A stretch of DNA of 48,662 nt, taken from the IMG/VR virus record IMGVR_UViG_2547132418_000015. One strand, given 5' to 3'. The DNA is from a virus. Taxonomy: Duplodnaviria > Heunggongvirae > Uroviricota > Caudoviricetes. The notes beneath the pieces are model-generated. The model was given only the letters and a program-made list of their open reading frames with translations. It searched no databases and had not been told where the DNA came from. Below are positions 12,457 to 41,690 of the stretch, piece after piece. The stretch's first letter is position 1. Every line of letters starts with the position of its first letter. The position numbers were made by a program, and so were the translations under genes.

Positions 12457-12481
12457 TAAAAGGCGGTCTGAACCGCCTTTT
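12457..12481 (-). terminator. Putative intrinsic terminator downstream of the major capsid gene
   Basis: AAAAGGCGGTCTGAACCGCCTTTT hairpin 8 nt after the capsid stop. Confidence 0.5.
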
Positions 12482-12489
12482 AATGACGG

Positions 12490-14685: not shown

Positions 14686-15156
14686 TTATTGCCTCAGAGC
14701 GGCGCTGACGCGTTTTCTGATGGCATCAAAAATTTCCTGTTCCCCGGTCTTATCCAGCCCCATATAAGGACGCGCAGGAACGCCTGCCGGGCGGGGTGCC
14801 ATATCGGGTGTACCGCCCCACTGATGAATGGCAGCATAAATTTTTGGCGAACCAATCAGGGCATAATCCTGTCCATAATCGGTGGTAATACTGCGTGCCA
14901 GATCGCCATGCAGGGTAAGAATACTGCCCGGAACAAAACCATGATCCTGACGCCATGCCTGCCACGAATCGCTCCATGCTTCCCAGCCTTTCCCTGTATC
15001 CGGATCTGCCTGCCGTTCAAATGCCTGTTCCGTGGATGACAGCAGCGCCGCAGACATCACACGGGGAATGGCGCGGTCACGTGTGACGGTTCCCAGTTCA
15101 TCCAGCGCAAGCTGAATACGTCGCACATCCACGGCAACGTTCATATCAAGACTCAC
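14686..15156 (-). CDS. Virion morphogenesis protein (Mu G-like)
   Basis: 156-aa ORF following the F-like gene. Confidence 0.8.
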   Translation of the reverse strand: MSLDMNVAVDVRRIQLALDELGTVTRDRAIPRVMSAALLSSTEQAFERQADPDTGKGWEAWSDSWQAWRQDHGFVPGSILTLHGDLARSITTDYGQDYALIGSPKIYAAIHQWGGTPDMAPRPAGVPARPYMGLDKTGEQEIFDAIRKRVSAALRQ

Positions 15157-19646: not shown

Positions 19647-19653
19647 AACCCTC

Positions 19654-20244
19654 TCATGCCTTACCCAGCAGCACATCACGGATACGCTGCTCCAGCTCTT
19701 CGCTGATGCCATCCTGCCCGCGCAGTTCTTCACTGACGGCGTTTGCCGCTTCTTCTGCGAATGCCTGGCGGATTTCTTTCTCGCGCCGGTGGCTGGACAT
19801 TGCCGTGGATTCCAGACGCTGTGCCGCCAGCATGGCATTTTTCAGCAGGTCAATATCCACGTCAGATTCCGGGTTTTCGATTTGCCGCATCATGGCCTTA
19901 AAAAGCTGGCTGCGGGCCATTTCCAGAATCAGCTTTGTGGTTTCTCCCATTGGCTTGTCGCCAAGTTCTGCGGTCAGTGCTGACGTCATTTCACGCATCT
20001 GTCGCAGGTTATGGCCTACCTGCTCGACGTTCGTCGCGTAACGGTTCAGACCGGAACGGGAGAGTTTCATCTCATCCGGCAGGCCTGCGTCTTCAATCAG
20101 TGCGTTAATTTCTTCCAGAATGCGGGCCTGTGGGATCGCTTTATCACGCAGCATTTCATGCAGCGTTTTACGTACGTTTTCCGGCAGTAAATCCACTTTT
20201 GAAGCCCGGCCCCGTGTTTTCCTGTCCATCACGCCTCCTGTCAT
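19654..20244 (-). CDS. Terminase small subunit-like protein (Mu gp27-like)
   Basis: 196-aa ORF immediately upstream of the large terminase. Confidence 0.75.
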   Translation of the reverse strand: MTGGVMDRKTRGRASKVDLLPENVRKTLHEMLRDKAIPQARILEEINALIEDAGLPDEMKLSRSGLNRYATNVEQVGHNLRQMREMTSALTAELGDKPMGETTKLILEMARSQLFKAMMRQIENPESDVDIDLLKNAMLAAQRLESTAMSSHRREKEIRQAFAEEAANAVSEELRGQDGISEELEQRIRDVLLGKA

Positions 20245-20531
20245 GCACGGGGACGAGGACGCTTGACACCGGCAACGCGGGCACGACCTTCTGCCACATC
20301 CTGACCCCGGGAAGTCAGCGTTACGACATAAAAGCCGCGCAGGTTTTCCACGGTGACCAGTTGCTGCTCTGCCAGCCAGTCAATCTGGCCGCGAACCACA
20401 TCGCGGGAAACGTTGTGTCCGTATGCATCCAGACAGTCCTGAAGGATGGATTCGTTGGCTTCGTTATTGCAGTCCATCAGGGAACGCAGGATGACCAGAC
20501 GACGGTCTTCGGTCAGAATATCGTTAATCAT
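20241..20531 (-). CDS. Mu gp26-like protein
   Basis: 96-aa ORF, translationally coupled to neighbours. Confidence 0.55.
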   Translation of the reverse strand: MINDILTEDRRLVILRSLMDCNNEANESILQDCLDAYGHNVSRDVVRGQIDWLAEQQLVTVENLRGFYVVTLTSRGQDVAEGRARVAGVKRPRPRA

Positions 20532-20845
20532 GAATTACTCCGGTTTACTGCGTTTTCAAGCAGCAGCTCCAGTTGATGGGAAAATGACTGCACCCGCTGG
20601 GACAGCACCCGGATATCACCGGACAGCTCTGCAATTCGCAGGCGCATTTCGTGTACATCTTCTGTGCCGGGGATGCTGGCGTAGCGGGTTTCCATTTCGG
20701 TCATCCGGTTTTCAAGACGCTCCACACGCTCGGTGCTGGCAAAACTACGACGCATCGCCCAGACGGCCCCCCCGGCCACAACAGGCAACAGGTAAGGCCA
20801 TAACGCTAAAACTGAAATCAAATCCATTATTCTGCTCCACGGCAC
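20528..20845 (-). CDS. Membrane protein with coiled-coil region, lysis-cassette associated
   Basis: 105-aa ORF with N-terminal hydrophobic segment ISVLALWPYLLPVVAGGAVWAM. Confidence 0.5.
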   Translation of the reverse strand: MPWSRIMDLISVLALWPYLLPVVAGGAVWAMRRSFASTERVERLENRMTEMETRYASIPGTEDVHEMRLRIAELSGDIRVLSQRVQSFSHQLELLLENAVNRSNS

Positions 20846-21021
20846 CAGTGGCAGTAGTTCGCCATCGGCTGCTGTCTCAGCACATCAGGCCGCAGCTCAC
20901 GACCGCAACCGGCACACAATACAGGCGGGTCATACGCCGCCGGGCGGGGAATATCACGGGTATCCCCCTGCCAGAGTTCAGCGAGCAGCAGCGCCAGCGC
21001 CCGGTTCTGGTCTTCGTTCAT
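20827..21021 (-). CDS. Small Cys-containing protein, possible zinc ribbon
   Basis: 64-aa ORF with CAGCG...CHWC. Confidence 0.45.
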   Translation of the reverse strand: MNEDQNRALALLLAELWQGDTRDIPRPAAYDPPVLCAGCGRELRPDVLRQQPMANYCHWCRGAE

Positions 21022-21319
21022 AAATTTCTTTCCTTCGGGTCTCCTGTTCCCGGACTGATGCCTTGTCGCGGTTGCACTGCCCGAGCGCCATCAACAGGTC
21101 AGCATTCCAGAGAAGGGATGCTCCCCACGTCAGGGGCTGTGGCATGGGCGGAACGGGCGTTGCTTCCGTCAGTTCTGCATCAGTTTCGGGCTGGAGCACC
21201 ACCGATGGCACGGGTGCGTTTTTCGAGTTCCCGCAACCTGTCAGCAGCAACGGCAGGCACAGGACGAGTGCTGCAATTGTCACCGGTAATGGCGGTTGTA
21301 ATTTTTTGTTTTGCATCAT
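20978..21319 (-). CDS. Outer-membrane spanin lipoprotein (Rz1-like)
   Basis: Starts MMQNKKLQPPLPVTIAALVLCLPLLLTGC (signal peptide plus lipobox LTGC); overlaps the i-spanin 3' end in another frame. Confidence 0.65.
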   Translation of the reverse strand: MMQNKKLQPPLPVTIAALVLCLPLLLTGCGNSKNAPVPSVVLQPETDAELTEATPVPPMPQPLTWGASLLWNADLLMALGQCNRDKASVREQETRRKEIYERRPEPGAGAAAR

Positions 21320-21566
21320 GATGTTCTGTCTCGTCTGCCAGCCGTGCGGCACGATTTGCGGCACGGATAGCGGAAAATACCTGCATCGTCTGTTCCTGAC
21401 CGTGTAACAACCATTCAGCAGTGTGGCGGGCCTGTTGCTCCGTCTGTAATTCACGGCGCAGCGTCTGGTTATCGTGGCGGGTGCTGTCCAGCCTGTGCCA
21501 CAACACCCCGGACAGAACGGCGGCAAACACGGCAGCCAGCAGTAAACTTTTACTGGCGAAGGTCAT
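21180..21566 (-). CDS. Inner-membrane spanin (Rz-like)
   Basis: 128-aa ORF with N-terminal transmembrane segment and charged coiled-coil region, directly downstream of the endolysin. Confidence 0.65.
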   Translation of the reverse strand: MTFASKSLLLAAVFAAVLSGVLWHRLDSTRHDNQTLRRELQTEQQARHTAEWLLHGQEQTMQVFSAIRAANRAARLADETEHHDAKQKITTAITGDNCSTRPVPAVAADRLRELEKRTRAIGGAPARN

Positions 21567-22068
21567 CCGCCCCCCTGATATTCCAGATAGCCATTTCCAC
21601 TTCGCGACGGTTCATCAGTCCTTTCCATTTATGGCCTGCGGCAAACACCCAGCGGGCCATCTGGTCACGCGCTCCGGCGTAATCACCGGCATTGAGTTTT
21701 TTCAGCAGCGTTGATTTACTGAATGCGGTAACACCGGTGTTGAAAATAAACGTTGCCAGCGCCGTTTTCTGATATGGCGTCAGCGGCACCCTGACAAGAC
21801 GATCGATTGCCGCATAAACCGGTTTTAAATCACTGTCGAGAAGAGCCATACACTCCGCATGGCTGTAACGGCGCATTTCGATATCCGGCCCGGTATGTCC
21901 CACACAGACCGTAAGCACACCGGCAATATCGCGGTAAGGCATATAAGCGATATTTTCCAGATGGATCAGAGACTGACGGGTCATTTCCTGATAACCACCC
22001 ACACCGCCACCGGCAATCGTTGCCGCCAGCAGTGCGGCTTTCAGTTTTTTTGGTATCCCCGCCATCAT
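21550..22068 (-). CDS. lys: Endolysin with N-terminal signal-anchor-release region (Mu Lys-like)
   Basis: 172-aa ORF with hydrophobic N-terminus LKAALLAATIAGGGVGGY followed by a lysozyme-like domain. Confidence 0.82.
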   Translation of the reverse strand: MMAGIPKKLKAALLAATIAGGGVGGYQEMTRQSLIHLENIAYMPYRDIAGVLTVCVGHTGPDIEMRRYSHAECMALLDSDLKPVYAAIDRLVRVPLTPYQKTALATFIFNTGVTAFSKSTLLKKLNAGDYAGARDQMARWVFAAGHKWKGLMNRREVEMAIWNIRGADDLRQ

Positions 22069-22140
22069 GCTTCCCTGAAAAAATGCGCTGATGGCAGTCT
22101 AAAAAATCAGATGGCAGGTGCGGGATTATGGTGACAGGAA

Positions 22141-22163
22141 ATAACCGGCAGGATGCCGGTTAT
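22141..22163 (-). terminator. Hairpin at the 3' end of the C gene
   Basis: ATAACCGGCAGGATGCCGGTTAT inverted repeat overlapping the C stop codon; U-tract is weak. Confidence 0.35.
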
Positions 22164-22582
22164 TTTGGGCTTTCAGGTGAGAACAGATCAGGCTGATGAC
22201 GTCGTGTATGCAGCTTTCTCTGGCGGGCAATAATCTGGTAGATCTGCGGCTGGGACAGGCGATACTGGCGACGCAGTTCTTCCATGTTACGACCATTGAA
22301 CTGGCAGTAAAGCAAATCGTCGCGTAACGCGGTCAGGATCGTATCGCCGCAGGGGATGTAAAACTGCCGCCCGCCCAGAAAACAGGACAGGGCAACGGCC
22401 TGTTTACGGGCAAGCTCACGGGGATTGCTGACGTTCTGGCGTTTCAGTTCGTTTTCCAGAATATCAATCAGATCAACCACTGAACGGGGCCAGCGTGATT
22501 CCAGTTCCGGGGCCGGGATGTTATCAATATGCCCGATTAACTGGCGAATTGCCGGATCGTGTTCAAATAAATCATGCTGCAT
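22160..22582 (-). CDS. C: Late transcription activator C (Mor/C family)
   Basis: 140-aa ORF paralogous to the upstream 129-aa Mor-like ORF; located just before lys as in Mu. Confidence 0.85.
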   Translation of the reverse strand: MQHDLFEHDPAIRQLIGHIDNIPAPELESRWPRSVVDLIDILENELKRQNVSNPRELARKQAVALSCFLGGRQFYIPCGDTILTALRDDLLYCQFNGRNMEELRRQYRLSQPQIYQIIARQRKLHTRRHQPDLFSPESPK

Positions 22583-22594
22583 ATTTTCCCCCGG

Positions 22595-22714
22595 TTAACA
22601 GACAAAAAGATACACCACGGCACTGATGGTTATCAGAACCACAAGGGCAATCACTTTTATCGCATTAATCAGCGTGGACGGCCCGAAACATTCATCACTG
22701 AATTTTCTGTACAT
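22595..22714 (-). CDS. Possible 39-aa hydrophobic peptide
   Basis: MYRKFSDECFGPSTLINAIKVIALVVLITISAVVYLFVC with AAAGGGG ribosome-binding site; ends 12 nt before the C start; not in the ORF track. Confidence 0.3.
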   Translation of the reverse strand: MYRKFSDECFGPSTLINAIKVIALVVLITISAVVYLFVC

Positions 22715-22723
22715 GGTGCCCCT

Positions 22724-23086
22724 TTACCCGAACAGACGAGCGCGAAAACGAAAGGAGAGCCAGAACGTCAGCAATCCGGCCAGCGCCCAGATGACATACT
22801 CAGGACCCGTTTTCAGTTGAGACGTTGCCATCACGGCTAATCCCAGCCCGGACAGCCCCCCCAGCCAGGTCAGAGGCCAGACGAACCGGGCAAAATGTTC
22901 AGGCACCCGGCAGCTCATTATCAGCGCATCCAGATAATCACCGGCAACACATAAAGCAACACTGAAAACCGAGGCACAGCAAAACATCAGCGCGCGCCAG
23001 CCACAAAACAGACTTATCCACAATAACAGCGCCAGTAATACCACCGATAAAAAATCAGGCCACTGACGAGCAGAACGCTCAGACAT
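22724..23086 (-). CDS. Integral membrane protein
   Basis: ORF 22724..23137; start at ATG 23086 (MSERSARQWPDFLSVVLLALLLWISLF...) with AGGGAG ribosome-binding site; several hydrophobic segments. Confidence 0.6.
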   Translation of the reverse strand: MSERSARQWPDFLSVVLLALLLWISLFCGWRALMFCCASVFSVALCVAGDYLDALIMSCRVPEHFARFVWPLTWLGGLSGLGLAVMATSQLKTGPEYVIWALAGLLTFWLSFRFRARLFG

Positions 23087-23297
23087 AATGTTTCTCCCTG
23101 TAAAGCAGGCAATGATGAAGAATTTCCGGCATATCAACTGACTGCCAGCCTTTCATGTAATAACTGCCGTGGGTGCCATCATGACCGGTATAGTCGCGGG
23201 GCGCAGGACGTGGCCCACCGGCGACACGGCGCAAAACCTCCTGACGCAGCCGCTCACGTCTGCCAAGATGAAAGGATGCATTCCAGCCTTTACCCAT
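23079..23297 (-). CDS. Hypothetical 72-aa protein
   Basis: ORF with GGGGA ribosome-binding site, overlapping the next gene start by 8 nt. Confidence 0.4.
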   Translation of the reverse strand: MGKGWNASFHLGRRERLRQEVLRRVAGGPRPAPRDYTGHDGTHGSYYMKGWQSVDMPEILHHCLLYREKHYV

Positions 23298-23374
23298 GAT
23301 GATTTTCCCCGGTACGGTTATTCATCACAGGATATTGAGGACGTAAAAAAAGCCGGATTAACCGGCTTTACTGT

Positions 23375-23764
23375 TTACAGAAGTGAGGGCTGGTACTGGC
23401 GGTATTTCAGCCGTCGCATCCGGCGAATGGCTTTGTACACCGTATTGAAAGTGACACCATAACGGGTGGTCAGTTCGCTGACGTTGCGACCGTTAAAATC
23501 ATTCCAGATACGCAAATCCCGAATCAGCGAGTCCAGAACCTGACCGCGTGGAATGTAGACCTGGCCGCCGCCCAGATGCTTACAGATAGCCACAACAATC
23601 TCCAGTGAATGGGCAGGATCAACACCCAGCCGGGACAATTCCCCGCGTAGTAAATCGTTCAGCTCCGCCAGCAGTGCCGGAAAGCGTGACGTATCCTCTG
23701 CGGGATTGTCAAGATGTGCCAGGATGGTGTCATCCTGCAAATCACCAAATAAATCTTCCGTCAT
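23375..23764 (-). CDS. mor: Middle operon regulator Mor (Mor/C family)
   Basis: 129-aa ORF immediately downstream of the GemA-like gene. Confidence 0.85.
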   Translation of the reverse strand: MTEDLFGDLQDDTILAHLDNPAEDTSRFPALLAELNDLLRGELSRLGVDPAHSLEIVVAICKHLGGGQVYIPRGQVLDSLIRDLRIWNDFNGRNVSELTTRYGVTFNTVYKAIRRMRRLKYRQYQPSLL

Positions 23765-24312
23765 TGTGCCATCCTCCGCGTCTTTCTGGCATGGGCATAA
23801 GCCGCCGTCATGGCATCATAGCCGCGCAGTTCACGCCCGGACGGACTGACCGGCAATGGAAGCCCGTGACGGGAAAAGGCTTCACGAATACAGCGGATGT
23901 GCCACTGTTTCAGGGTTTCAAGCACAACCTGCAACGATTCTCCGTGGCACCACGCCAGTGTGGAAACCCCCTGTCCGCCGTTGCGTTTCGCTGTCAGGCG
24001 CTGAACATATTTATCCAGCGCCACATCACCGCCATCGGTAATAAAACCGTCTTCTGCCATCTGCTGCCAGACTTTGTATACCTTCTCGCGGGGAGTGGCA
24101 TACCCCTTAAAGCGGCGACGTGGATGTTTATTCAGCTTCTTAAAGCCGCGTTCTTTCATGGCATCGAGCACCTGTTCCAGTTGCGTGACCGTCAGCTCGC
24201 GGCAACTGGTTTTGCCCGTTTTCTGCATCAGAAAAGCGCGGTAAGTGTCGTCGTCGAGTTGTAGCTCCCGACGGGCGACATGGATTAATTTAATCAGGGA
24301 TGTGCGATTCAT
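23761..24312 (-). CDS. gemA: GemA-like regulatory protein (Mu gp16)
   Basis: ORF 23761..24480; start placed at ATG 24312 (MNRTSLIKLIHVARRELQLDDDTYRAF...) with GAGGTG ribosome-binding site. Confidence 0.8.
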   Translation of the reverse strand: MNRTSLIKLIHVARRELQLDDDTYRAFLMQKTGKTSCRELTVTQLEQVLDAMKERGFKKLNKHPRRRFKGYATPREKVYKVWQQMAEDGFITDGGDVALDKYVQRLTAKRNGGQGVSTLAWCHGESLQVVLETLKQWHIRCIREAFSRHGLPLPVSPSGRELRGYDAMTAAYAHARKTRRMAQ

Positions 24313-24342
24313 TTGCTCACCTCTCATATTAAGGAATGAGAT

Positions 24343-24759
24343 ATGAAAATTGATTATGACGAGATAGCCAGAATATTTGATGTTTTTCTGGAGGCCGACA
24401 CCGCATTCATTCGACTGGAAGATGTCGGCTGGGATTGTTCTCAGCGGCACAGCGACAGCCATCAGAAGCTGGTTTTCCATCTTCTGTTGCTGGTTGAAAA
24501 TGGTTTTATCAGCAACAGATATCTGGAAACAGGCACCGCAAAAAGCATTGGTCTCACCCCAACAAGCCTCGGATATTCATATTCAGGCACCAGTGTCAGA
24601 CTTACACAAGATGGTCATGATTTTGCGAAAGCACTACATCAAAAACCCATTCTTGAGCGCATAAAACAGGACCTTGCCGACGCCCCGATGACGCTCGTAA
24701 CAGACGTCGGCAAACAGTGGTTAACCTCGTTTCTTAAAAAGAAACTCGGGATTGAATAG
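24343..24759 (+). CDS. Hypothetical 138-aa protein on the opposite strand inside the phage early region
   Basis: ATG with AAGGAA ribosome-binding site; diverges from gemA across a 30-bp gap; 3' end overlaps the 24721..25032 gene by 39 nt. Confidence 0.55.
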   Translation: MKIDYDEIARIFDVFLEADTAFIRLEDVGWDCSQRHSDSHQKLVFHLLLLVENGFISNRYLETGTAKSIGLTPTSLGYSYSGTSVRLTQDGHDFAKALHQKPILERIKQDLADAPMTLVTDVGKQWLTSFLKKKLGIE

Positions 24760-25032
24760 TTCCCTGTTCATACGTTGCAGCGCATCAAGGGCGGCGACAG
24801 CCGCCACTTTATTGTTACCATCAGCAATAGTGCGGAGATTTTCAATAATCCAGTGAGGACTCAGTGACTCAGCAATAATGCCAAACCGGTACGCCATGAC
24901 TTCATCAATAGCTTTTTCATGAGACGACTCATATACAAAACTCACAAAGTCATGCACTTCTTTTTTCGGCAAACCACCGGCAATCAGCAGGGCGGCAAGC
25001 TCTTCTGATTTTGAAAATACACCATTATTCAT
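24721..25032 (-). CDS. Hypothetical early-region protein
   Basis: ORF 24721..25047 (GTG); ATG at 25032 with AAGGTG ribosome-binding site is the likely start. Confidence 0.55.
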   Translation of the reverse strand: MNNGVFSKSEELAALLIAGGLPKKEVHDFVSFVYESSHEKAIDEVMAYRFGIIAESLSPHWIIENLRTIADGNNKVAAVAALDALQRMNRELFNPEFLFKKRG

Positions 25033-25033
25033 A

Positions 25034-25727
25034 TCACTCACCTTCACAATTCATGCACGCCGTGTCATCGCCCATATCGCAGTGGTTGCATTTCTGCCCA
25101 CCACAATGAGGGCACTCTTTCAGATATTCAGGGTTTTCATTACCGCAGGTCGGGCATTCCTGTTTCACCGTGGTGAATGTCCCCAGCCACGAATACGAAT
25201 TTTCACCGACTGTCTTTTTCCCCGTTATTTCTGAATCAGAACTAATACAGTGTTTTTCAACCCATGCCACACGTGCTGAATTCAGGTGGCATCTGGCCAA
25301 TTTGCTTTCGTTTCTGTAATGTTTGCTGTCCCGGTTAAATGGCAATTTCTCATTCAGCCCTGCTGAGATAAAGTCCGCATGTAATTGTTCTAATGCGGCT
25401 TCACTGTCTGCACCGGTTGATTCAAAATAATCGTAAGCATTGGCACATAATCCGGCAGCCCGGGTAAATACATCATCGCCCGTCTCCATTGCCCCATTCT
25501 TTAACCATCGGTTGTAGGCTGTATAAAAACTATAAAGTTGCTTTCTGATACAGGTAGTGGCAGTTCCGCCATTAACTGACGCTGGCGTAACATAGCCAGC
25601 TCTGCATAAAGCAGAACGAAGTATATCCAGAACCTGCCAGGCATCTTCTCCTTCAATCACGCTACAGTTTTTGTACACCAGGACGTCCCGGCCACAACTT
25701 TTATCAATACCCCAGTCTTCAAATTTC
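25034..25727 (-). CDS. Hypothetical protein with C-terminal Cys-rich (zinc-ribbon-like) tail
   Basis: ORF 25034..25792; likely GTG start at about 25727 with GGAGG ribosome-binding site overlapping the upstream stop; C-terminus CPTCGNENPEYLKECPHCGGQKCNHCDMGDDTACMNCEGE. Confidence 0.55.
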
Positions 25728-26258
25728 ACAACCAGCCTCCTGCACCACACCCGGTGCTGATGAAAAATCAATGATGAGATAACGCAGTACATGGTCGGTG
25801 ATATTCCAGGCGCTGGAACTGCAAATAAACCGCCCCAGCCGGATATCGATATAAGCCATCACAAAACGGGGCATTCCCTGTTTGCACATCTCGTCATCCA
25901 CTTCTGCAACGATGTGAACGGACTCACAGGTCAGTACGCCTGTCGCAAACTCTTTTGCCAGTGCGGGGATGGTATTACCTTCCACCCAGGGTAATGAGCG
26001 ACGCCAGTTGCACCACACCGCATCATCAACAGCAGGCTGCTCAGTTGCGTTTCGTCTTACCGGCGGCGTCTGACGCGGGCGCGGAACGTCATAAAATCCG
26101 TTGCATTCGGTGAGCACTCCGGCATCAACCGCATCACGCAGGAAATACACCATTGCGGAGGGTGGCATCTGCATTTTTTCAGCCAGAACCCCGCAGGTCA
26201 GGCGTCCGTAAGCCCGTAATAATGTGCTGACACCATTCAGAATTTTTGCATCAACCAT
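25719..26258 (-). CDS. Hypothetical early-region protein
   Basis: 179-aa ORF with GAGGA ribosome-binding site. Confidence 0.6.
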   Translation of the reverse strand: MVDAKILNGVSTLLRAYGRLTCGVLAEKMQMPPSAMVYFLRDAVDAGVLTECNGFYDVPRPRQTPPVRRNATEQPAVDDAVWCNWRRSLPWVEGNTIPALAKEFATGVLTCESVHIVAEVDDEMCKQGMPRFVMAYIDIRLGRFICSSSAWNITDHVLRYLIIDFSSAPGVVQEAGCEI

Positions 26259-26356
26259 GTTTTATTCCTCAGTAATCTGTTTCAGGCGCGAGCAATCCCC
26301 TGACGCATCGCGCCATAATTAAAAGAATGTGAATTAATTAAATATTAATGGTGGTA

Positions 26357-26881
26357 TTAAATACCGGCTTCCTGTTCAAACGGAATAATGGAAAAATCTT
26401 CAATTCCCGATTTAACCGTAATTCCGGCAACACCTGCGACGGCTTTTGGTTCCAGTAAAATCGCCTCCTTGTTGATTTCCTGCTTCGTGCGAATAAAGCG
26501 TTGCAGGCCAAGACGCTCCAGCGTTTCCATCACTGCATCCATACCACGAATACTTACTGATGGTGGACGGCCCCGCCACGATACATCACCGGTGACAAGA
26601 TTCGCCGTCTTCACTTTGCCGCCGTTCGTCAGTTCGTCGCGGTTCGCTTCACACCATCCCTGAACGCCTTTTGAAAGGGTTTCAATATCGGTTTTAATCG
26701 GTGCAATCCGGGCCGCAAATTTCTCCGTAATTTCCGCGATGGCATCATTCATTTCCGTTTCCAGACGTGATGCTTCGCGCTGTAAATCCCCGATGCGTTT
26801 AATATCGGTAATCACCGCATCGCGGTTTTGTGGCACATAAGCCGCTGCGGCACTCTTGATACGTTTTGCTGGTTTAGCCAT
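26357..26881 (-). CDS. gam: Gam-like host-nuclease inhibitor
   Basis: 174-aa ORF MAKPAKRIKSAAAAYVPQNRDAVITDIKRIGDLQREASRLETEMNDAIAEI..., same length and position as Mu Gam. Confidence 0.85.
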   Translation of the reverse strand: MAKPAKRIKSAAAAYVPQNRDAVITDIKRIGDLQREASRLETEMNDAIAEITEKFAARIAPIKTDIETLSKGVQGWCEANRDELTNGGKVKTANLVTGDVSWRGRPPSVSIRGMDAVMETLERLGLQRFIRTKQEINKEAILLEPKAVAGVAGITVKSGIEDFSIIPFEQEAGI

Positions 26882-26900
26882 AAATTAAAGCTCCTGTTAA

Positions 26901-27200
26901 TTAATATCCGCTGTATACAATGCTGGATACAGCTCGATTGCTTAATTCCATCTTTCGGGCAATGACATGAATATCCAGCCCTTCTTTATAAAGTTCACGA
27001 CATAAATATTTGTCGTGTTCACTGATTCGGTATACACACAATGATATTCCGTGCCTTCTGGCATGTGCCCGGAGGGCGGTTGTGGCGACTTTCAGTTTTT
27101 CCGCCATTTCTTCAACGGTCATTTTCCCGACGTTGGCTTCGATAAATTCCCGGTCTTCGCGTGACCAGCGCTTACGATTACACTTCATGTCAGCCACCAT
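26901..27200 (-). CDS. Hypothetical early-region protein, possible helix-turn-helix
   Basis: 99-aa ORF in the semi-essential region. Confidence 0.5.
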   Translation of the reverse strand: MVADMKCNRKRWSREDREFIEANVGKMTVEEMAEKLKVATTALRAHARRHGISLCVYRISEHDKYLCRELYKEGLDIHVIARKMELSNRAVSSIVYSGY

Positions 27201-27620
27201 TCAGTACAGCAGAGGCTCGCGCAGTGATGCCGGAATATGCCGCAGCGATAACTGAACCGCTTTCAGGGCAAGCGAGGAATAACAGCAGCGCGCCCAGCCT
27301 TTTGCCATTAACCGGTAATCGCGCCAGATACGCTGCCACATTTCACGGGCCTCAGGGTCTGATGCGCAGATGTATTCCCGGTCCATGACGTACTCCCATA
27401 AATCCACGTTGAACGCACCGCCAAATGCAATGGCGCGGGATATGCTTTCGCCGCAATAACGCGCACAAATGCTGTAATGGTCGAAAGCAATCAGGTAAGT
27501 CTTTTCACCACAATCATCAACTTTCCGGGCGCAAATAAACTCGCGTAATTCACCACCGTTGTTATTGCGTTCCTGAATTCGGATTAATGCCTGAATTTCA
27601 TTTCGGATTTTGACGTTCAT
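27201..27620 (-). CDS. Hypothetical early-region protein
   Basis: 139-aa ORF. Confidence 0.5.
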   Translation of the reverse strand: MNVKIRNEIQALIRIQERNNNGGELREFICARKVDDCGEKTYLIAFDHYSICARYCGESISRAIAFGGAFNVDLWEYVMDREYICASDPEAREMWQRIWRDYRLMAKGWARCCYSSLALKAVQLSLRHIPASLREPLLY

Positions 27621-27640
27621 TGTCAGCGTTCCTTTGCGAA

Positions 27641-27910
27641 TTAATGTCTGGCTGTATTCGGGTTATAGCTGAATAATTCCCCCTCGGCTTCCAGCCCAAG
27701 CTCCCTGGCTGATTTCAACAACTCCTCGGTCGCTTTTTTAATGATTTCAGGAGCCATGCTCTTGATGATGCCTGCCATTACATCATGTGGCCCGGTCTGG
27801 TCCTCAGGTGAGGATTCTTCCAGTCGCACATTCATATTTACGGCAAAACCTCCATTTTCCTGAAACTCAATATTTCTTGTATTGTTAAATTCAAAGATTA
27901 CTTTTGCCAT
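27641..27910 (-). CDS. Hypothetical early-region protein
   Basis: 89-aa ORF. Confidence 0.5.
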   Translation of the reverse strand: MAKVIFEFNNTRNIEFQENGGFAVNMNVRLEESSPEDQTGPHDVMAGIIKSMAPEIIKKATEELLKSARELGLEAEGELFSYNPNTARH

Positions 27911-27930
27911 TTTTCTTCTCCTTATTGATT

Positions 27931-28176
27931 CTAAATAACTGCGCTGGCTTTTACCTTCGCGCCTTTTACCTGCTTAAAGAAAACTGCGCTGCACCACGGA
28001 CAACATGTCAGGGAATCCCAAATTTCCTTTTCGTGTGAGCATTGCGTCATAATCTGTTCACCGCATCCGGGGCATTTATATGTCGTCAGCGGCACCCCGT
28101 GGCACTGACAGTGTTTAACCCATTCAATATATTTTTCAGCTTTAATACACATCGTTATCTCCAGATAATCTGACAA
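27931..28176 (-). CDS. Hypothetical Cys-rich small protein
   Basis: 81-aa ORF with CQCHG...CPGCG...CCPWC motifs. Confidence 0.5.
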
Positions 28177-28382
28177 CCATTAAGACGGGCCGTCCATACA
28201 GAACGGGCCACCCCGGACTTATGCTCCATAATCCTGACCGCGTTTTTTACCAGTTCCACCGGTGGGTAAGTGATTTCAAGAATCGGACGCGCCACGCCGA
28301 GATATGATTCATTTACATGACTCCCGCGCGCCTGTAACCAGTTCTGCGCATCCGTTGCCATTTTTATATTTCGGGCCATCAT
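28155..28382 (-). CDS. kil: Kil-like protein
   Basis: 75-aa ORF immediately downstream of B, the position of Mu kil. Confidence 0.6.
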
Positions 28383-28397
28383 AATTTCTTCTCCTTC

Positions 28398-29336
28398 TTA
28401 ATTACGCAGCAGCGTTGAAATATCAACGTCCAGGTCTAATTCACGGAAAGCCTGACGCAGATAATCTTCGTTAACACGCTCACCTTTACCGTGAGCCGTC
28501 ATGGCGGCAAGGCGAAGTGAATGATTCAGAATGCGAAGCGCACCTGGTTTCTGCGCAATCTGCTGTAATAACTCCAGTTCATTTTCGCCGTTAATCTGCC
28601 AGGCATCCGCAATAGCTTTTACATCGGCTTTTTTGGTTTTATTAATTGCAGTGCGCTTTGCAATACGGGAAAACAGACGGGCAAATTCAACCGTTCTGTT
28701 ACCCCCCGTCATATTTGAATAAACCCGGTGATTTCCCATCAGCACAAGGCCAGTGCGGGTTGATTCCTGTAACAGGCGGAGTTCTTCCAGAACTTCGGCA
28801 CCAAGATGATCAGCTTCGTCGATGATAACCAGCCCCTGTGTACCTTCAAGGCGACGTCGCAGGGCGCGGGAGAGCGGCCCTTTACGGCGTGGTGCGTCAT
28901 TCATTCCCAGCTCAAACGCCAGTTCAGTAAGACATTCCAGAACGCTGGCACAGGATGGCGTAATGGTGATCATCCAGACATTGTTATTGGTGCGGCGATA
29001 TTCACGGGCCGCTTCGGTTTTGCCCACACCAGGATTGCCACATACAACAGCAATACTTTCAGTCAGGCTGGCAAAACGCATACTTGTCCAGATTTGTTTT
29101 ACCGTCTGCGTTTCCACAAAGCGGGGCGGTTCAGGTAGTTCTGCCACTGCATGATATTTTTCCAGCCAGCGTTGCAGCATTTGTGAAACACGCTCGTTAT
29201 CCCCGTTGTACTTATCATTGATAAAACTACTGATAGTTCCGGTAGAAAGTCCGCTCTCAAGAGCAATTTGTTTAAAGGTGGTTTCTTCATTTTCTACAAG
29301 CGTGCGCAGTCCTGCGCGAATATCGGAAATATTCAT
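28398..29336 (-). CDS. B: Transposition ATPase B
   Basis: 312-aa ORF with Walker A GNPGVGKT, directly downstream of the transposase. Confidence 0.9.
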   Translation of the reverse strand: MNISDIRAGLRTLVENEETTFKQIALESGLSTGTISSFINDKYNGDNERVSQMLQRWLEKYHAVAELPEPPRFVETQTVKQIWTSMRFASLTESIAVVCGNPGVGKTEAAREYRRTNNNVWMITITPSCASVLECLTELAFELGMNDAPRRKGPLSRALRRRLEGTQGLVIIDEADHLGAEVLEELRLLQESTRTGLVLMGNHRVYSNMTGGNRTVEFARLFSRIAKRTAINKTKKADVKAIADAWQINGENELELLQQIAQKPGALRILNHSLRLAAMTAHGKGERVNEDYLRQAFRELDLDVDISTLLRN

Positions 29337-29374
29337 CTGAATAACCTCGTAATTAAATTTTGTTTAAACGTTAA

Positions 29375-31363
29375 TTAAATGGCTTTTTTACGTCTGTTCT
29401 GTTCCAGAATATCCAGCGAATGATTCAGATATTCATCACGCTCAGTTTCGTATTCATCATCACGCTCCTGATTCTTCACCCGTTCCGTATTACCGGAAGG
29501 CCGGAAAATGCCGACAATTCGTGATTCTGGTGCTTCAGGTTCGGCTATCTGCGGCAGCAGCTCTGCCACTTCCAGTGCATCCATTTGTTTCTGTGCCTTA
29601 ATCGCTGCTTTCGTCGCAGATTTCAGTTGTTTCTGGCGGCGGCGATATTCACGGCCTGCCGCAGCATCATTAAACGCAACAGGTGCCAGACATTCCGCTT
29701 CACAGATAAACCGACCGTCCAGGGTGTAACAATAAACCGTGCTGTGTAGCTGCTGCGGATCAAACCTGACCACAACTTTTTTCACGCCGGCATTCATTAA
29801 TGCCATGTTGTAATAAACGTTTTTCGCGCCTTTAAGGGAGCCGCCAACTTTAAGCGTAAACTCGCCTTTGCGTGAAACGTTCACCGCCTCGGCAGGCAGT
29901 AACAGCATCCGTTTTTGTTCTTCGGTTGGCTTACGCACAATCGTTCTGGCGTATTCACGCTCGAAAACATCATCAAACGAGAGTTTGCCCCCGCACATTT
30001 CTGTTTCACGGCCTGTTCTGGCATTGAACATCGCCACACCTTCGGCAAGGTTTTTCAGAAACAGCTCTGCATCAACAGCGCGGTTGCCATAGTTATCAGG
30101 TTTTGCCTGCGGATTTGGCCCCGTATATGCGCCAGCCAGTGCCGGATGCTTATCAACGTATTCCTCAAGCCCACCAACACCGAAAGCACGTTCAACAGGT
30201 TTTGCCTGGCCCCAGCCTTTACCGGCAACAACGCTTGTCCAGTGCATTTTCGCACCCATCAGTAAAAACAATCCCTTTGGATCGTCTTCTTTCACCTTAA
30301 AGCGGTAGCGATTGGGCGCGCCTCCCGTCAGCCATTTATTCGCAGCACCACGGGTGTTATCAATGGTGATGTGAAAATCCTCCGGGATACCGTAGCGAGT
30401 CACAACATCCATGAACGAGAGGCGAATTGAATCAATGTTCTCGCTCACATCGCAGCGCCAGCCCAGAATTTTTCGGGTTTTCACATCCTGCCAGAACCAT
30501 GTTTTCGGGCGGATCACATCACCGTTAAACCAGCGTACAAAGACGTTATGCAGATAACCGTCGCCGTTGATCCACTGCATGGCGTCCAGGTGTTCCACAG
30601 TTCGCTGCTGTGCCGGTATCAGATGCATCAGTGCATGTTCACCTTCACGACAGGCAACAACCATTGCCTCGTCCAGTTGCTGAATCCGGCGAAAGGCCGT
30701 GGCACGGGAGGGAATCCTCCAGCCATGCTCGCGGGCTGCCAGTTCCAGACGCTCATAACATTTGCGGAAGGCGGGTTTTTCCGGTCGCAGATAATCTGCA
30801 ATCAGAAACTGCCAGGCATCCTCGTCAAATTCACTTTTGTGAACATTGCGACGGGATGCACCACGTCCATCAACAAGTGCAGCCGCCCAGTCAGGCTTCG
30901 CAAACTTCTGTACCTGGTAATACTTGTCCCGCAAAGTGGATGCGCTGACCTGGTAATGCCCTGCAACGGTCGCAAAAGCCGTTTTCGTTGAAATCCCCTG
31001 GTTCAGCATTTCGTCTGCAGCCTGAACCGCAGGCAACCATTTTTCAGCAAGTCTGCGCTGGGAATCGCTGGCTTTATCCCATTTGCTCCACAGCACCTCA
31101 CGATCATAATCATGGGCTTCCAGCGTGGGGCGGGCGATTTCAAAACGGCCCAGGCTTGTTTCAATTCTCCCTTGTTGCAACAGAATTTCAGCACGTAATG
31201 CGACAGGGAATGATTTGATATTGAATTCAAATGATACACCTTTAGTCCCTGCAACCTGTCTGAACTCCCAGCCTTCTCTTTGTGCCTTACGTGTAATGTT
31301 AGTGGCTTGCTTTGGTAAACCTGCCAAACCGAGCAACTCTTTTGCTGTATACCATTCTTTCAT
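29375..31363 (-). CDS. A: DDE transposase A
   Basis: 662-aa ORF, Mu A-like over most of its length with a divergent N-terminal DNA-binding region. Confidence 0.93.
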
Positions 31364-31370
31364 AGCGCAC

Positions 31371-31592
31371 CTAGTATCGAGACGGCCAAATATCTTGCGG
31401 TGTCATTCCCAGTGCATCTGCAATGATTTTCTCCGCTTTCGGATATCTCTTATCCAAAGCATTTTTTAATGTTGAAGACGAAAGATGATTAGATCTTCCC
31501 AATTCAGCTAGTGACATATTGCGTTTTCGTAGCTCTGCAACGATGTCAGCTCTGTGCCAATCTTGGCGGTTAGTTCTTTTATTCATATGCAT
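31371..31592 (-). CDS. ner: Ner-like early transcriptional regulator
   Basis: 73-aa ORF ending ...[14 protein letters not shown], first gene of the early operon. Confidence 0.85.
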
Positions 31593-31777
31593 TTCATGTA
31601 ATCCTTTCAGATTCCCCCGCGAGCTACGCTATAAAGTAGCTCACGGCATATCGTGCAATGTAGTGTGGAATCACTTTCAAATCAATAGTGATTTGAAAGG
31701 ATTTGCCATGATTTCATATAACAGCATGATTTTTATATGAATTTATTTTGTCTCTATTGAAATCACTAGGATTTTAA
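31593..31777. promoter_or_regulatory. Divergent early/repressor promoter and operator region
   Basis: Between divergent ner and c; palindromes AGCTACGCTATAAAGTAGCT (31622-31641) and CTTTCAAATCA-ATAG-TGATTTGAAAG (31674-31699). Confidence 0.7.
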
Positions 31778-32302
31778 ATGATGTCTTTTGAAATCAAAGA
31801 ATGGTTTAATGCGAAAGAGCTGGAAGGGATGCCTGGTGTACCAAAGTTGGCGACTAACATTACCAGGAAAGCTGTGGCGGAAGATTGGGTAAAACGTCAG
31901 CGTCACGGTGGGAAAGGTGTCGCTTATGAGTATCACATCAACAGTCTGCCAGAAGAAACACGCAGGGCCATTAAAGGAGCCTCACTTTCTGATAAACCAG
32001 TGCATACATCAATCGCCCATACAGTTGATGAGAGGCTAATTTATGCAATGAGCTTCTTAACACCAGATGAGCAGGCCGCAGCTGTGGAGATCATTCGTGT
32101 GGCAGGGATTAAAGGACTTATGCCTACAATTGTCAGTAAAGATAAGGCATTAGAGGCATTAGGGATTACTGTGGAGCAACAGAAAACCCTGCAAACTCTT
32201 CAGGCATTACCACCGGAAAAAGTGAGAGAGATTTTGTCTCAGTATGAAGGCAAAGAACATAATTTCCCTGTAAGAGAAAACGATGTAAAGAAAGCTGTAT
32301 AA
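31778..32302 (+). CDS. c: Repressor c (Mu/D108 family)
   Basis: 174-aa ORF with AGGA ribosome-binding site; C-terminus ...KVREILSQYEG...KKAV as in Mu-type repressors; divergent from ner. Confidence 0.85.
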   Translation: MMSFEIKEWFNAKELEGMPGVPKLATNITRKAVAEDWVKRQRHGGKGVAYEYHINSLPEETRRAIKGASLSDKPVHTSIAHTVDERLIYAMSFLTPDEQAAAVEIIRVAGIKGLMPTIVSKDKALEALGITVEQQKTLQTLQALPPEKVREILSQYEGKEHNFPVRENDVKKAV

Positions 32303-32641
32303 CAACCAGGTAATAGCTAAGACATAAACTTCACTCCAGGCAATTACATATGTAAGATACCCAAACAGTGATGATTGTTTTTGACACACATCACTTGCTG
32401 AAAGCCTGGTTGTTACCGTTTTTGAAGCATTTTTGAAGCTGTACTTGAAATGATGCGTGAAGTAATTGCTTTTCGTGTCTTTAATGAATCAAAAGCTGTT
32501 TCCAACAATCTTTCGCGTTTCAAGATGTAACGGCTAAAATCTGTCCTACAGGCTTGCAAGCCCCACTAAATCTAATCCCGCCAAATCCCGAATAATCCAA
32601 TGTCCTCCCGGTTTTTTTCGTACTTCAAGTGAATCAATACA
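32303..32641 (-). other. Prophage left end with transposase binding sites; terminus at 32641
   Basis: Minus strand from 32641 reads TGTATTGATTCACTTGAAGTACGAAAAAAACCGGGAGGACATTGG...; repeated TTTTCGT-type motifs. Confidence 0.85.
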
Positions 32642-32654
32642 GTGCTGATTTATG

Positions 32655-32957
32655 TCAGACGGGATTTTGCTTATCAATTATTGAGAACAGAAATTTTCCT
32701 GAATCATCAATACTATACTTAGCAAGTAAAGGTGTTTTCTCATTTATCTGCTTGAGTGCAGGATCAAGGAAAGATCGTTTCAACTCTGCCAAGTTCTTCT
32801 GCTGGGATTCCGGTAAGACGAAACGGTCATTTAACCAAGCATGAGTAGTAACCCATAAGCCTGAAGATTTGAATTGAGCAAGACTTTCATAAAGGCGGAT
32901 CGTCCGGGGATTTCGAAGACTGCCACAATCGCGGAGCGAGTAGGTGGTGAACTGGTT
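32655..32957 (-). pseudogene. Remnant of a second Rep_3-family initiator gene (C-terminal about 99 codons)
   Basis: Minus-strand translation QFTTYSLRDCGSLRNPRTIRLYESLAQFKSSGLWVTTHAWL...INEKTPLL...DKQNPV aligns with the C-terminus of the rep gene at 40612-41334; cut by IS1 at 32957/32958. Confidence 0.75.
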
Positions 32958-32972
32958 GGTAATGACTCCAAC

Positions 32973-33476
32973 TTACTGATAGTGTTTTATGTTCAGATAA
33001 TGCCCGATGACTTTGTCATGCAGCGCCACCGATTTTGAGAACGACAGTGACTTCCTGCCCAGCCTTGCCAGATGCTGCCTCAGATTCTGGTTATGCCGCT
33101 CAATTCGCTGCGTATATCGCTTGCTGATAACGTGCAGTTCTCCCTTCAGGCGGGATTCATAAAGCGGCCAGCCATCCGTCATCCATACCACGACCTCAAA
33201 GGCCGACAGCAGGCCCGGAAGACGCTCCAGCGTGGCCAGAGTACGCTCACCAAAGACGCGTGCCACCACCGTCCTGCACATCCTGCCATAGGCGTAAAAT
33301 AACCAGCGCTGACGTGATTTAGCCCCGACGTAGCCCCACTGTTCGTCCATTTCCGCGCAGACAATGACGTCACTGCCCGGTTGTATGCGTGAGGTTACCG
33401 ACTGCGGTCTGAGTTTTTTAAGTGACGTAAAATCGTGTTGAGGCCAACGCCCATAATGCGGGCGGTTGCCCGGCAT
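32973..33476 (-). CDS. insB: IS1 InsB (transposase frame, made as InsAB' by frameshifting)
   Basis: 167-aa ORF ...[22 protein letters not shown]... Confidence 0.88.
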
Positions 33477-33670
33477 CCAACGCCATTCATGGCCATATCA
33501 ATGATTTTCTGGTGCGTACCGGGCTGAGAGGCGGTGTAAGTGAACTGTAGCTGCCATGTTTTACGGCAGTGAGAGCAGAGATAGCGCTGATGTCCGGCAG
33601 TACTTTTACCGTTACGCACCACGCCTTCAGTAGCTGAGCAGGAGGGACAACTGATGGAGATGGAAGCCAC
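33395..33670 (-). CDS. insA: IS1 InsA
   Basis: 91-aa [46 protein letters not shown]... Confidence 0.9.
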
Positions 33671-33729
33671 TGGAGCACCTCAAAGACACCATCGTACACT
33701 AAATCAGTAAGTTGGCACCATTATCCGGC

Positions 33730-35650
33730 AGGCGATCTGGATTATCGTCACGCTGTTAAATATGTCGCGGTAGGGATACCCGTTACCGGATACCCCCCGC
33801 ACAGATCCCGGCGTGCGCGATTTACGCACCGGGCTCCTGCCTCGGGTGTCTGGCGGTGAACCGCTCCACAGGCCATGGATGAAGAACCCGAACCCTTGGT
33901 AGCCATGCGGCTGCCAGTTTGTTTGCTTTCGTCCAGGTCGTATCATCCTTCTGGCTCCTGCGCCTGAGCGCCCGGCGCCAGAGGTTTGTTACGTGTGTCC
34001 TGAACTTCTGCATGGTGGGGAAGTTGCCCGGTACCGAGTGATAGTTCAGGTATCCCTGAACCACTCTCCTGAGCCATTTTCCCTGTTCGGGGATTGAGTA
34101 ATGCCAGCGCCTTCGCAGACCGTCTTTGATGGCTTTCAGAGTTGCCGTCATCCGATCCCGGCGGGTCTTTCGTATCAGCATGAACCTGCCGTTGCGATCT
34201 TTCCCGCTGATGTGCGTGAACCCGAGGAAGTTGAACGTTTCTGGTTTGCCTTTTCCCCTGATGGCACGGTTTTCGGCAGCGAAGCGGCCGAACTCCATCA
34301 GACGGGTTTTCTCCGGGTGAACCGTGAGTCCGAACTCCCTCAGTCTGCGCTGCATGGCTATACGGAAGCGCCGGGCATCGTATCGTTTGTCGAACCCGAT
34401 GACGATGTCATCGGCGTATCTGACCATTACCACATTGCCTGTGGCATAGCGACGTCGCCACTGATGCGCCCACAGATCGAAGACGTAGTGGAGGTATATG
34501 TTTGCCAGCAGCGGTGAGATGACCGCACCCTGTGGGGTGCCTTCCTCCGTTGCTCGCCATTGACCCTCCTCCAACGTCCCGGCTGTGAGCCACTTACGTA
34601 TGAGCCTGATTACGCTCCGGTCGCCGATCCGATGCTCTGTGAACCTGATCAGCCATTCGTGGCTCACCCTGTCGAAGAACTGACTGATGTCGGCATCCAG
34701 TACCCAGTTTACGTTAGTGCGTACCAGCCCTGTGGCCAGTGCGTCCAGTGCATCGTGCTGGCTTCGCCCGGGTCTGAACCCGTATGAGAACCCCATAAAG
34801 TCGTTTTCATAGACTGCGTTCAGGATTTTCACCAGCGCATACTGGACGATCTTGTCCTCCAGCGAGGCGATGCCGAGCGGGCGTTGTTTTCCATCCGCTT
34901 TTGGGATGTAGTGACGCCTGCCGGGCTGCGCCCTGTAGCTGCCCTAATGTAGCCTCCGGTGCAGATCTGTTATGTTGTTCTTCATGTTTCCGGCGTAGTC
35001 CATCCACCTGATGCCATCCACTCCGGCGGCCGCTTTCCTGCTCAGGGAGAGGAATGCGGCTTCCAGTGCTTCGACTGTCAGCAGGTGGAACAATGCTGTA
35101 AACCGTTCTTTCTTCCGCTGCTTCGCAGCTTCCCGCACGCGTGACAGCCTCTGTGACATGCTTTCCCGGCTCTGTGTCCGGCGCATGTGTGGCTGTTCCG
35201 CGTTCCCCTTGGCCCCGCTCCTTCGCTCCACTGACTCCGCTCCTTTCGGGTTGTTCGCCTGCTTCGCCGCTACTATGAGCGAGTCCGACTTCTCCTCTCC
35301 GTACATCACCGGCTATGACTCCTCGTCTTCCCGGTGCGGGCCGTCTCCGACACTGGCAGATGGTCAGAGGGGAGATCTCCCGGTTCCCGCGTAGAGATCG
35401 TATTGACATGCCAGGGTCTCAGACCCCGCCGGGTCCATGTGGCACTCGCAGTATCGCACCCTATGATGTTGCCTTCCGTTAACAGTACAACGTCGGCACC
35501 CGGTAATTTAATATACATTTCGTGGCTCAATGGCTGGCCTGTCAACACCCCTGTCAACGCTTCGCCCCATACCTCGCGGTATGCAACGCATGACTCGGGG
35601 ACCTTGTGGATTGCTGGTCCTTCAATGGTCGGGGACTTTCACCCCTTGAT
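33730..35650 (-). mobile_element. Group II intron 1, boundaries approximate, 5' end possibly truncated
   Basis: Reverse transcriptase ORF; domain V-like GAGCCCGGTGCGTAAATCGCGCACGCCGGGATCT on the minus strand at about 33803-33836. Confidence 0.6.
33822..35309 (-). pseudogene. Group II intron reverse transcriptase/maturase interrupted by an in-frame TAG
   Basis: ORFs 34944..35309 and 33822..34832 are in the same frame, separated only by TAG at 34944-34946; motifs AAGVDG, FRPGRSQHDA, YADD. Confidence 0.8.
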
Positions 35651-40070: not shown

Positions 40071-40565
40071 CTGTGGGAAACAGGTCAACTTTAATGGACG
40101 CTCCGGACTATGGGAAACAGGTCAACTTCGCGGACGGCCCGGACTATGGGAAACAGGTCAACTTCACGGGCGGCCGGGAGTGTGGGGAACAGGTCAACTT
40201 CGCGGACGGCCCGGACTATGGGAAACAGGTCAACTTCACGGGCGGCCGGGAGTGTGGGGAACAGGTCAACTTCGCGGACGGCCCGGATTATGGGAAACAG
40301 GTCAACTTCGCGGGCGGCCGGGACTGTGGGAAACAGGTCAACTTTGCAGACGGCCCGGACTGTGGGAAACAGGTCAACTTCGCGGGCGGCCGGGAGTGTG
40401 GGGAACAGGTCAACTTCGCGGACGGCCCGGACTAAGGGAAACAGGTCAGCTTCTCGGACGGCCCGGACTATGGGAAACAGGTCAACTTCTCGGACGGTCG
40501 GGAGTGTGGGAAACAGGTCAAGTTAGGCAAGCACTATGGGAAACACAGCAAGTTCAGTATCCCCC
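40071..40565. repeat. Array of 13 direct 36-bp iterons plus one degenerate unit, downstream of rep
   Basis: Unit TGGGAAACAGGTCAACTTCGCGGACGGCCCGGACTA repeated at 36-37-bp period. Confidence 0.9.
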
Positions 40566-40611: not shown

Positions 40612-41334
40612 CTATTGTTTTTTATCAAGAAAATTAAACAGCAAGCGACCATCTTCTTCAGTGGTATATGTTACCTTTAATGGCGTCTTCTCATTAATTT
40701 TCTTCAGAGCAGGTTCCAGGAAGGTACGCTTCATTTCAGCAATATTGTTTTTCTGCGAGGCAGGGAGCATAAACCTTTCACATAACCAGTCATGTGTGGT
40801 GATCCAGACACCAGTGCTCCGGAACTGACACAGGCTTTCATAAAGCCGGATGACACGAACACTATTAAGCTGGCCACAGTCATAGAGAGAATAGGTAGTG
40901 AACTGGGAGGTTAAGCCGACCAGGAATGGCATGACCTTGTAGTTAAATTCAATCTGCCAGGAACCCCGGCCTCGCTTCATTCCTGCTTCAGCCAGCCACG
41001 GACGTTTAACTTCTTCAAACTCACCTTCTTTTGGATAAAAGGTAACCGTTGATTCGCCCAGAGCATTTACCCCAGCCTTCACATCACGACTGGCGACAGA
41101 CGTAGCGACATTGAAGTATTTGACGTAATCGGAAACGCTGATTTTGAAGAGCGGCAATACGTCAGAGTCATCTTCCTGGCTGTCATTAAAATAGGCCTGC
41201 ATGAGGCATAACCACAGCACACGTTTTGCCTGAAGAGGCAGGTAATATGCAGCTTCGGTCAATTCGTTAGATTGCTTTATACTGGCGCGTTTTTTAAACG
41301 TTTTAGTAGCTGGCAAGAGTGCTTGAGTATCCAT
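40612..41334 (-). CDS. rep: Rep_3/RepE-family replication initiator
   Basis: ORF 40612..41493; start placed at ATG 41334 (MDTQALLPATKTFKKRASIKQSNELTEAAYYL...) because upstream codons overlap origin iterons; RLYESLCQFR motif. Confidence 0.82.
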   Translation of the reverse strand: MDTQALLPATKTFKKRASIKQSNELTEAAYYLPLQAKRVLWLCLMQAYFNDSQEDDSDVLPLFKISVSDYVKYFNVATSVASRDVKAGVNALGESTVTFYPKEGEFEEVKRPWLAEAGMKRGRGSWQIEFNYKVMPFLVGLTSQFTTYSLYDCGQLNSVRVIRLYESLCQFRSTGVWITTHDWLCERFMLPASQKNNIAEMKRTFLEPALKKINEKTPLKVTYTTEEDGRLLFNFLDKKQ

Positions 41335-41399
41335 TTCAATGCCTATGGGTAAATTTTTACCCACCCATAATGACAGTGAAAACAGAAATTGCAAGCTAT

Positions 41400-41690
41400 C
41401 GCGATACTTATCCACCGGAAAAATCTGCACTTTATCCACAAGTGGATAATTGAGAACTGAACTTGACCTCTTTCCCATAGCTTGTTGATGCATATCCCAT
41501 AGCTTGTTGACACAAAACCCACTGATACGTGATTAATTTCCCATATTATGTTTACCAGTTGCCCATACAGGCCCCCTCTCAGGCCGCACTGTACGCGGCT
41601 TTCAGGCTCCCTAAAAGATGTAAAATAAAGAAAAAGAATAAAAAAGTACTTTATAAAAATATGCCCGTGGATAAGTGGATAACCCCGAGG
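41400..41690. other. Vegetative replication origin: DnaA boxes, four spaced iteron cores, AT-rich segment
   Basis: TTATCCACAAGTGGATAA (41433-41450), GTGGATAAGTGGATAA (41666-41681), CCCATA cores at about 41475, 41497, 41541, 41563, AT-rich 41600-41660. Confidence 0.7.

Follow-up and report, generated by a model that had tools for sequence, protein, structure and literature searches.

A 5'-truncated IncN1 repA gene between IS1X3 and a D108-like prophage in a circular IncR plasmid

The locus occupies positions 32642-32957 of a 48,662-bp stretch of DNA, referred to here as the window, and consists of the 3' end of a replication initiator gene together with the 13 nt that follow its stop codon. 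It is held between the left end of a Mu-type prophage on one side and an IS1 element on the other, with a group II intron beyond the IS1 (Table 1). Bases 1-226 of the window are repeated as 48437-48662, so that the molecule forms a closed circle of 48,436 bp. The right of the window carries a typical IncR backbone, comprising a group II intron (retA/ltrA), umuDC, parBA, iterons, repB, a resD-like integrase and vapBC/vagCD, of which vagCD/resD and repB match records typed as IncR. Both domains of the resident repB product are complete in Pfam searches (Rep3_N, 1.9e-31; Rep3_C, 2.4e-13). Iterons of 36 bp have been reported for IncR plasmids (PMC9412624), and the array in the window agrees with that description. 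The molecule is classed on these grounds as a circular IncR plasmid of ~48.4 kb, which is predicted to replicate from its own IncR repB and 36-bp iterons, with repB as the working initiator. No antibiotic-resistance region was noticed in the window, though such regions are common in IncR plasmids. On one side the single IS26 truncates a second RT-like sequence of group II intron type and on the other the interior of the prophage, and its flanks GTCGTTAT and CTTTTTTG are unrelated, so that a target duplication is absent.

Table 1. Features of the window discussed in the text.
Feature	Position	Strand	Remarks or basis
IS26 (single, 820 bp)	48309-48662 + 227-692; 3' 692 bp = 1..692	plus	Abuts prophage interior
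D108-like (Mu-type) transposable prophage, ~31.9 kb	693..32641	minus	Left end (attL, D108 nt 1) at 32641
Transposase A	29375-31363	minus	ORF list
ner	31371-31592	minus	ORF list
Repressor c	31778-32302	plus	ORF list
IncN sequence 3' of repA stop, 13 nt	32642..32654	minus	CATAAATCAGCAC on coding strand; comparison with pEFER and pZS50
delta-repA(IncN1)	32655..32957	minus	Codons 140-239 and TGA of IncN1 initiator RepA; WH2 domain and WH1 tail
IS1X3-type IS1, 768 bp	32958..33725	minus	Sequence; identical annotated element in pEFER and p101EVA-1; insA/insB ORFs
Group II intron of IncR backbone (retA/ltrA)	33726..35639	minus	RT ORF 33822-35309
IncR iteron array, 36 bp x 12.4, downstream of repB	40074..40521		TRF
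IncR repB, intact, 288 aa as annotated in relatives	40612..41478	minus	Annotation in CP010149.1

Translation of the fragment gives 100 sense codons followed by TGA (32655-32657). An earlier, sequence-only reading of this DNA had described about 99 C-terminal residues on the minus strand, akin to the C-terminus of the resident rep, with the 5' part ending at IS1 and the prophage end lying 14 bp past the stop. These observations hold: there are 100 residues with 61% identity, IS1 starts exactly at 32958, and 13 nt separate the stop from the prophage, whose first base is the 14th. Aligned by BLASTP with the intact rep ORF (40612-41493, minus strand), the fragment shows 59/97 identities and 82% positives without gaps (E = 7e-46), corresponds end-to-end to residues 196-292 of the 293 in the resident protein. 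Pfam recognizes the Rep3_C domain (WH2, PF21205) over fragment residues 39-89, at 39.7 bits against a cut-off of 21.1 (E = 6e-10). Of the Rep3_N domain (WH1, PF01051) only profile positions 116-140 of 141 are matched, at 20.0 bits, below the cut-off of 22.4. Similarity to Rep_3 initiators is therefore evident from both the alignment and the Rep3_C match. The fragment is a piece of a Rep_3 (Rep3_N WH1 plus Rep3_C WH2) initiator gene and not a functional member of the family.

The closest counterpart of the fragment is found outside the plasmid. pZS50 (NC_019082.1) is typed as IncN and MOBF/MPF_T and encodes a RepA of 239 aa; the fragment is identical to residues 140-239 of this protein at 99/100 positions and to pZS50 repA at 298/303 nt (98.3%), as against only 62% nucleotide identity to the resident IncR repB. 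Compared with the full 239-aa RepA, the fragment has lost its first 139 codons. The 13 nt past the stop are also identical between the window and pZS50. A DNA search of 72,556 plasmids matched the 316-bp stretch formed by the fragment and this tail in 1,943 records. The matches comprise one class that is 100% identical and usually lacks annotation, and a second that is ~98% identical, is annotated 'replication initiation protein' and often stands at the start of plasmid records of ~38-100 kb or larger. Given the nucleotide identities of 98.3% to IncN1 repA and 62% to the resident rep, the fragment is thus identified as the 3' 303 bp of IncN1 repA (codons 140-239 plus the stop), and not as the in-plasmid rep paralogue that the sequence-only reading had proposed; nothing found contradicts this identification. 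The resemblance on which that proposal drew is itself genuine, because IncN RepA and the resident initiator are true homologs (57% identity between IncN RepA and IncR RepB over their full length), both with downstream iterons.

The IS1 sequence begins at 32958 with GGTAATGACTCC... and links delta-repA(IncN) with the group II intron that belongs to the IncR backbone. The target duplication of 8-9 bp is absent, as the flanking 9-mers GAACTGGTT and CGGCAGGCG differ; the junction is therefore attributed to deletion or recombination and not to a simple insertion. A 70-bp probe centred on the IS1/delta-repA junction was searched in PLSDB and found the junction, at a coverage of at least 80%, in 680 plasmids, with 643 of 695 matching records at least 99% identical. 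The host bacteria include Klebsiella, Escherichia, Enterobacter, Citrobacter, Salmonella and other genera. In the IncR plasmid pEFER of E. fergusonii, the DNA corresponding to window 32642-34622 is 100% identical and that corresponding to 35415-39897 is 98.6% identical; pEFER lacks window 34623-35414. Since so many plasmids share the same junction, the IS1 truncation is old and inherited, and is not an event that occurred in this plasmid. The arrangement corresponds to a segment described as 'region N' in pST1023, where IS903B, IS1X3, a repA remnant and 37-bp x 24.3 iterons lie just upstream of retA, and which has been tied to the IncR backbone in 74 sequences (PMC9412624). [quoted passage not shown] The sequence-only reading had seen here a former two-replicon plasmid, one replicon of which was destroyed. 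The remnant of a second Rep_3 initiator bears this out in part, but the IS1 cut is common to the 680 plasmids and is not local. A functional two-replicon ancestor can only be inferred from such a remnant, and the IncN piece may have arrived already incomplete. In the IncR plasmid p101EVA-1 (L002, 5014-5956) a second IS1, of the IS1A type and 91% identical to IS1X3, lies inside the delta-repA stub and leaves an 83-aa piece annotated as 'replication initiation protein', showing that the stub tolerates further disruption.

The group II intron next to IS1 is itself damaged. Its RT ORF carries a nonsense codon, Q122*, at 34944-34946 in comparison with the otherwise identical 495-aa protein of p101EVA-1, and the intron-encoded protein is therefore inactivated here. 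Rfam models place intron RNA domains D1-D4 at 35414-35639 on the minus strand. Domains D5/D6 were not found in the 96 nt that separate the RT stop from IS1 (33726-33821), even at E <= 1. This suggests, though it does not prove, that the IS1 event that cut repA may also have clipped the 3' end of the intron.

On the other side of the fragment, relatives with iterons indicate what once lay beyond the repA stop. pEFER carries 15.5 copies of a 37-bp iteron, the end of the array lying 47 bp from the stop, and pZS50, in which the IncN1 repA is intact, carries 36.5 copies of the 37-bp iteron in the same place. Of the 47-bp spacer between the stop and this iteron array (array I), the 13 nt in the window are all that is left. 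The iterons of the relatives do lie on the side where the prophage end had been taken to occupy their site, but the end falls within the spacer and not within the array itself. Neither the 37-bp IncN iteron nor the 34-bp spacer that follows the stop in pEFER has a match anywhere in the window with up to three mismatches; the iterons have therefore not been relocated elsewhere in the molecule. Their loss would be accounted for by IS26, which is taken to have removed the far end of the prophage and whatever lay beyond it. The IncR 36-bp iteron TGGGAAACAGGTCAACTTCGCGGACGGCCCGGACTA (40074-40521) can be compared with the IncN 37-bp iteron TGGGAATCCGCCCACCTTGCCGGGCGCCGGTGCCGTG (L001, 5394-5966). Both consensus units start with TGGGAA, and a hand alignment of the TRF consensus units shares ~58% of positions. 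Cross-recognition between the IncN and IncR replicons is conceivable from this likeness.

No in-frame ATG or GTG is present within the fragment; as possible starts the frame offers just two TTGs, at codons 56 and 59, the first of which would yield 45 aa. Upstream, the frame is that of the end of IS1 insB, whose stop lies five codons before the junction, and none of those five IS1 codons is a start codon. Neither sigma-70-like promoter sites nor terminator-like sites were found in 32500-33150. The stub is unannotated in most RefSeq records, while a few call a 'hypothetical protein' or a short 'replication initiation protein'. Since it has no WH1 domain, promoter or start codon and is preceded by an in-frame IS1 stop, the stub is read as a pseudogene that is very probably untranslated and inert.

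It has nonetheless to be considered that the stub is functional and was retained for that reason, a WH2-only RepA' or the DNA itself interfering with IncN plasmids or modulating the IncR replicon. Hundreds of plasmids carry the sequence without change, a CDS has been assigned to it by a few annotators, and both the 57% identity of the IncN and IncR initiators and the partly shared iterons could accommodate such an effect. The lack of an in-frame ATG or GTG, the 45-aa limit on any product from the first TTG, the in-frame IS1 stop five codons upstream and the want of a promoter-like site all argue against it, and the iterons that could titrate RepA are absent from this plasmid. Conservation is uninformative about selection here because 100% identity extends into the flanking IS1 and non-coding DNA, as recent common descent explains. 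A functional stub is accordingly very unlikely. The broader notion that the IncN relic is not neutral, acting through a WH2-only peptide or through the stub and iteron array I together as an incompatibility or copy-number module against IncN or IncR, has an equally slim chance of being correct. If it were correct, Mu insertion and IS26 deletion would have made the present plasmid a natural 'iteron-minus' variant whose compatibility with IncN is altered. From the pCU1 work of Krishnan and Iyer in 1990 and of Papp and Iyer in 1995, any residual incompatibility role would reportedly be expected of the iterons and not of the stub.

The prophage that now closes the locus resembles the transposable phages D108 and Mu. 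It is 98.3% identical to D108 over nt 1-12594 (the early region) and ~96% identical to Mu/D108 in the late region, and the homology to Mu stops at ~nt 31810 of 36717. The right ~4.9 kb is missing, attR included, and the boundary coincides with the IS26 terminus at window 692/693. Without attR and this right part, the prophage would therefore be capable neither of transposition nor of giving rise to a complete phage. At the opposite end, homology to pEFER and pZS50 ceases 13 nt past the repA stop and is followed by TGTATTGATTCACTTGAAGTACG..., the D108/Mu left terminus. Read on the phage strand the sequence is TGTATTGATTCAC..., and D108 nt 1 coincides with window 32641, the exact terminus (5'-TG...). 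Many E. coli chromosomes, whose flanking DNA varies, carry a prophage left end that terminates at this base. The 5-bp target duplication of Mu is predicted to be GTGCT (32642-32646).

Neither the Mu/delta-repA junction nor an intact insertion was found in PLSDB, complete E. coli genomes, GTDB representative genomes or JGI metagenomes, and comparable Mu DNA occurs in only one of 72,556 PLSDB records (CP088505.1, 94.5% identity). The rarity of Mu-type DNA on plasmids and the unmatched junction raise the question of an artefact of assembly, such as the false joining of a chromosomal Mu prophage and an IncR contig via repeats. Misassembly would, however, be expected to join sequences at a shared repeat, whereas here the phage sequence ends precisely at its terminus and the plasmid side is unique, non-repeated DNA, as transposition would yield. 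At its other boundary the prophage meets IS26 cleanly at the IS26 terminus, and the two ends of the contig overlap by 226 bp to close the circle. An artefact is therefore considered highly improbable, and the adjacency is taken to reflect transposition of the phage into the plasmid.

Scarcely credible at all is an origin of the fragment by internal duplication of IncR repB, followed by divergence and truncation by IS1 in this plasmid: the fragment's orientation, shared with the resident rep, and its 61% aa identity to the C-terminus of the rep product might suggest it, and downstream 36/37-bp iteron arrays are normal for both genes, but this reading is rejected on nucleotide identity (62% to resident repB, 98.3% to IncN1 repA), and the identical junction in 680 other plasmids and the IncN-specific 13-nt tail after the stop, exactly as in pZS50, also speak against it.

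With the fragment taken as IncN1 repA, the junctions can be arranged into a putative history. An ancestor of the IncR lineage would first have gained IncN replicon DNA, whether through a cointegrate or through capture mediated by an IS. Deletion or recombination associated with IS1X3 would then have taken repA codons 1-139 and everything upstream, so that IS1 came to lie between delta-repA and the intron with no target duplication; adjacent deletion by IS1 and recombination between two IS1 copies are both candidate mechanisms for the junction observed. The resulting delta-repA/IS1X3 structure has spread with IncR plasmids, among which it is now found. In this plasmid, a D108-like Mu appears to have transposed into the 47-bp repA-iteron spacer, 13 nt past the stop, where its terminus now lies. 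On the far side of such a simple insertion the Mu right end would have been joined to ...CATGTGTGCT, followed by the IncN iterons, with GTGCT duplicated. Later, an IS26-mediated deletion may have removed the right 4.9 kb of the phage, the IncN iterons, IS903B and any adjacent accessory DNA, all of which are absent from the molecule. The order and mechanism of these events are inferred from the junctions alone. The explanation as a whole, namely an inert IncN1 repA pseudogene within region N, subsequent Mu insertion and then IS26 deletion, is nonetheless held with high confidence.

Taken alone, the stub is of little importance, being an already catalogued scar of IncN/IncR recombination. For annotation, it should be labelled delta-repA(IncN1), and neither a second replicon nor a paralogue; partial hits in IncN typing are possible. 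The IS1X3 junction, present in 680 plasmids, provides a precise lineage marker. The less ordinary item here is the prophage, a rare natural case of a transposable phage on a clinically widespread plasmid type, and one that would document the order of events, with Mu insertion first and IS26 deletion after.

Several known systems offer points of comparison. D108 and Mu share with the prophage the left end, c, ner, A, B and the late genes at 96-98% identity, with the terminus at D108 nt 1; the prophage differs in residing on a plasmid and in lacking the right ~4.9 kb (the tail-fibre/G-segment/gin/mom region and attR). The IncN1 basic replicon, as in pCU1, R46 and pZS50, consists of a Rep_3 initiator gene with arrays I and II of 37-bp iterons and has in common with the locus the final 303 bp of repA as well as the 13 nt beyond the stop codon. 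Codons 1-139, which encode most of WH1, are missing from the stub, as are the promoter and the upstream iteron region II, and here also the downstream array I; the stub is not a replicon. The relics in F33:A-:B- plasmids (PMC6052338) are likewise 5'-truncated IncN1 repA genes that an insertion sequence has left behind in a plasmid of a different type, but they differ in the element involved (IS26, not IS1X3), the point of truncation and the host backbone. The nearest counterpart is region N of pST1023, pEFER and many other plasmids, in which IS903B, IncN iteron I, delta-repA(IncN) and IS1X3 follow in that order just upstream of retA. The present locus differs from it in being cut 13 nt past the repA stop by the D108-like prophage end and in the absence of the iteron array and IS903B from the whole molecule, and shares with it delta-repA, the IS1X3 junction, IS1X3 itself and the adjacent group II intron, with complete identity to pEFER over 32642-34622. 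The locus is thus a truncated derivative of the IncR region N, a feature already known from the literature.
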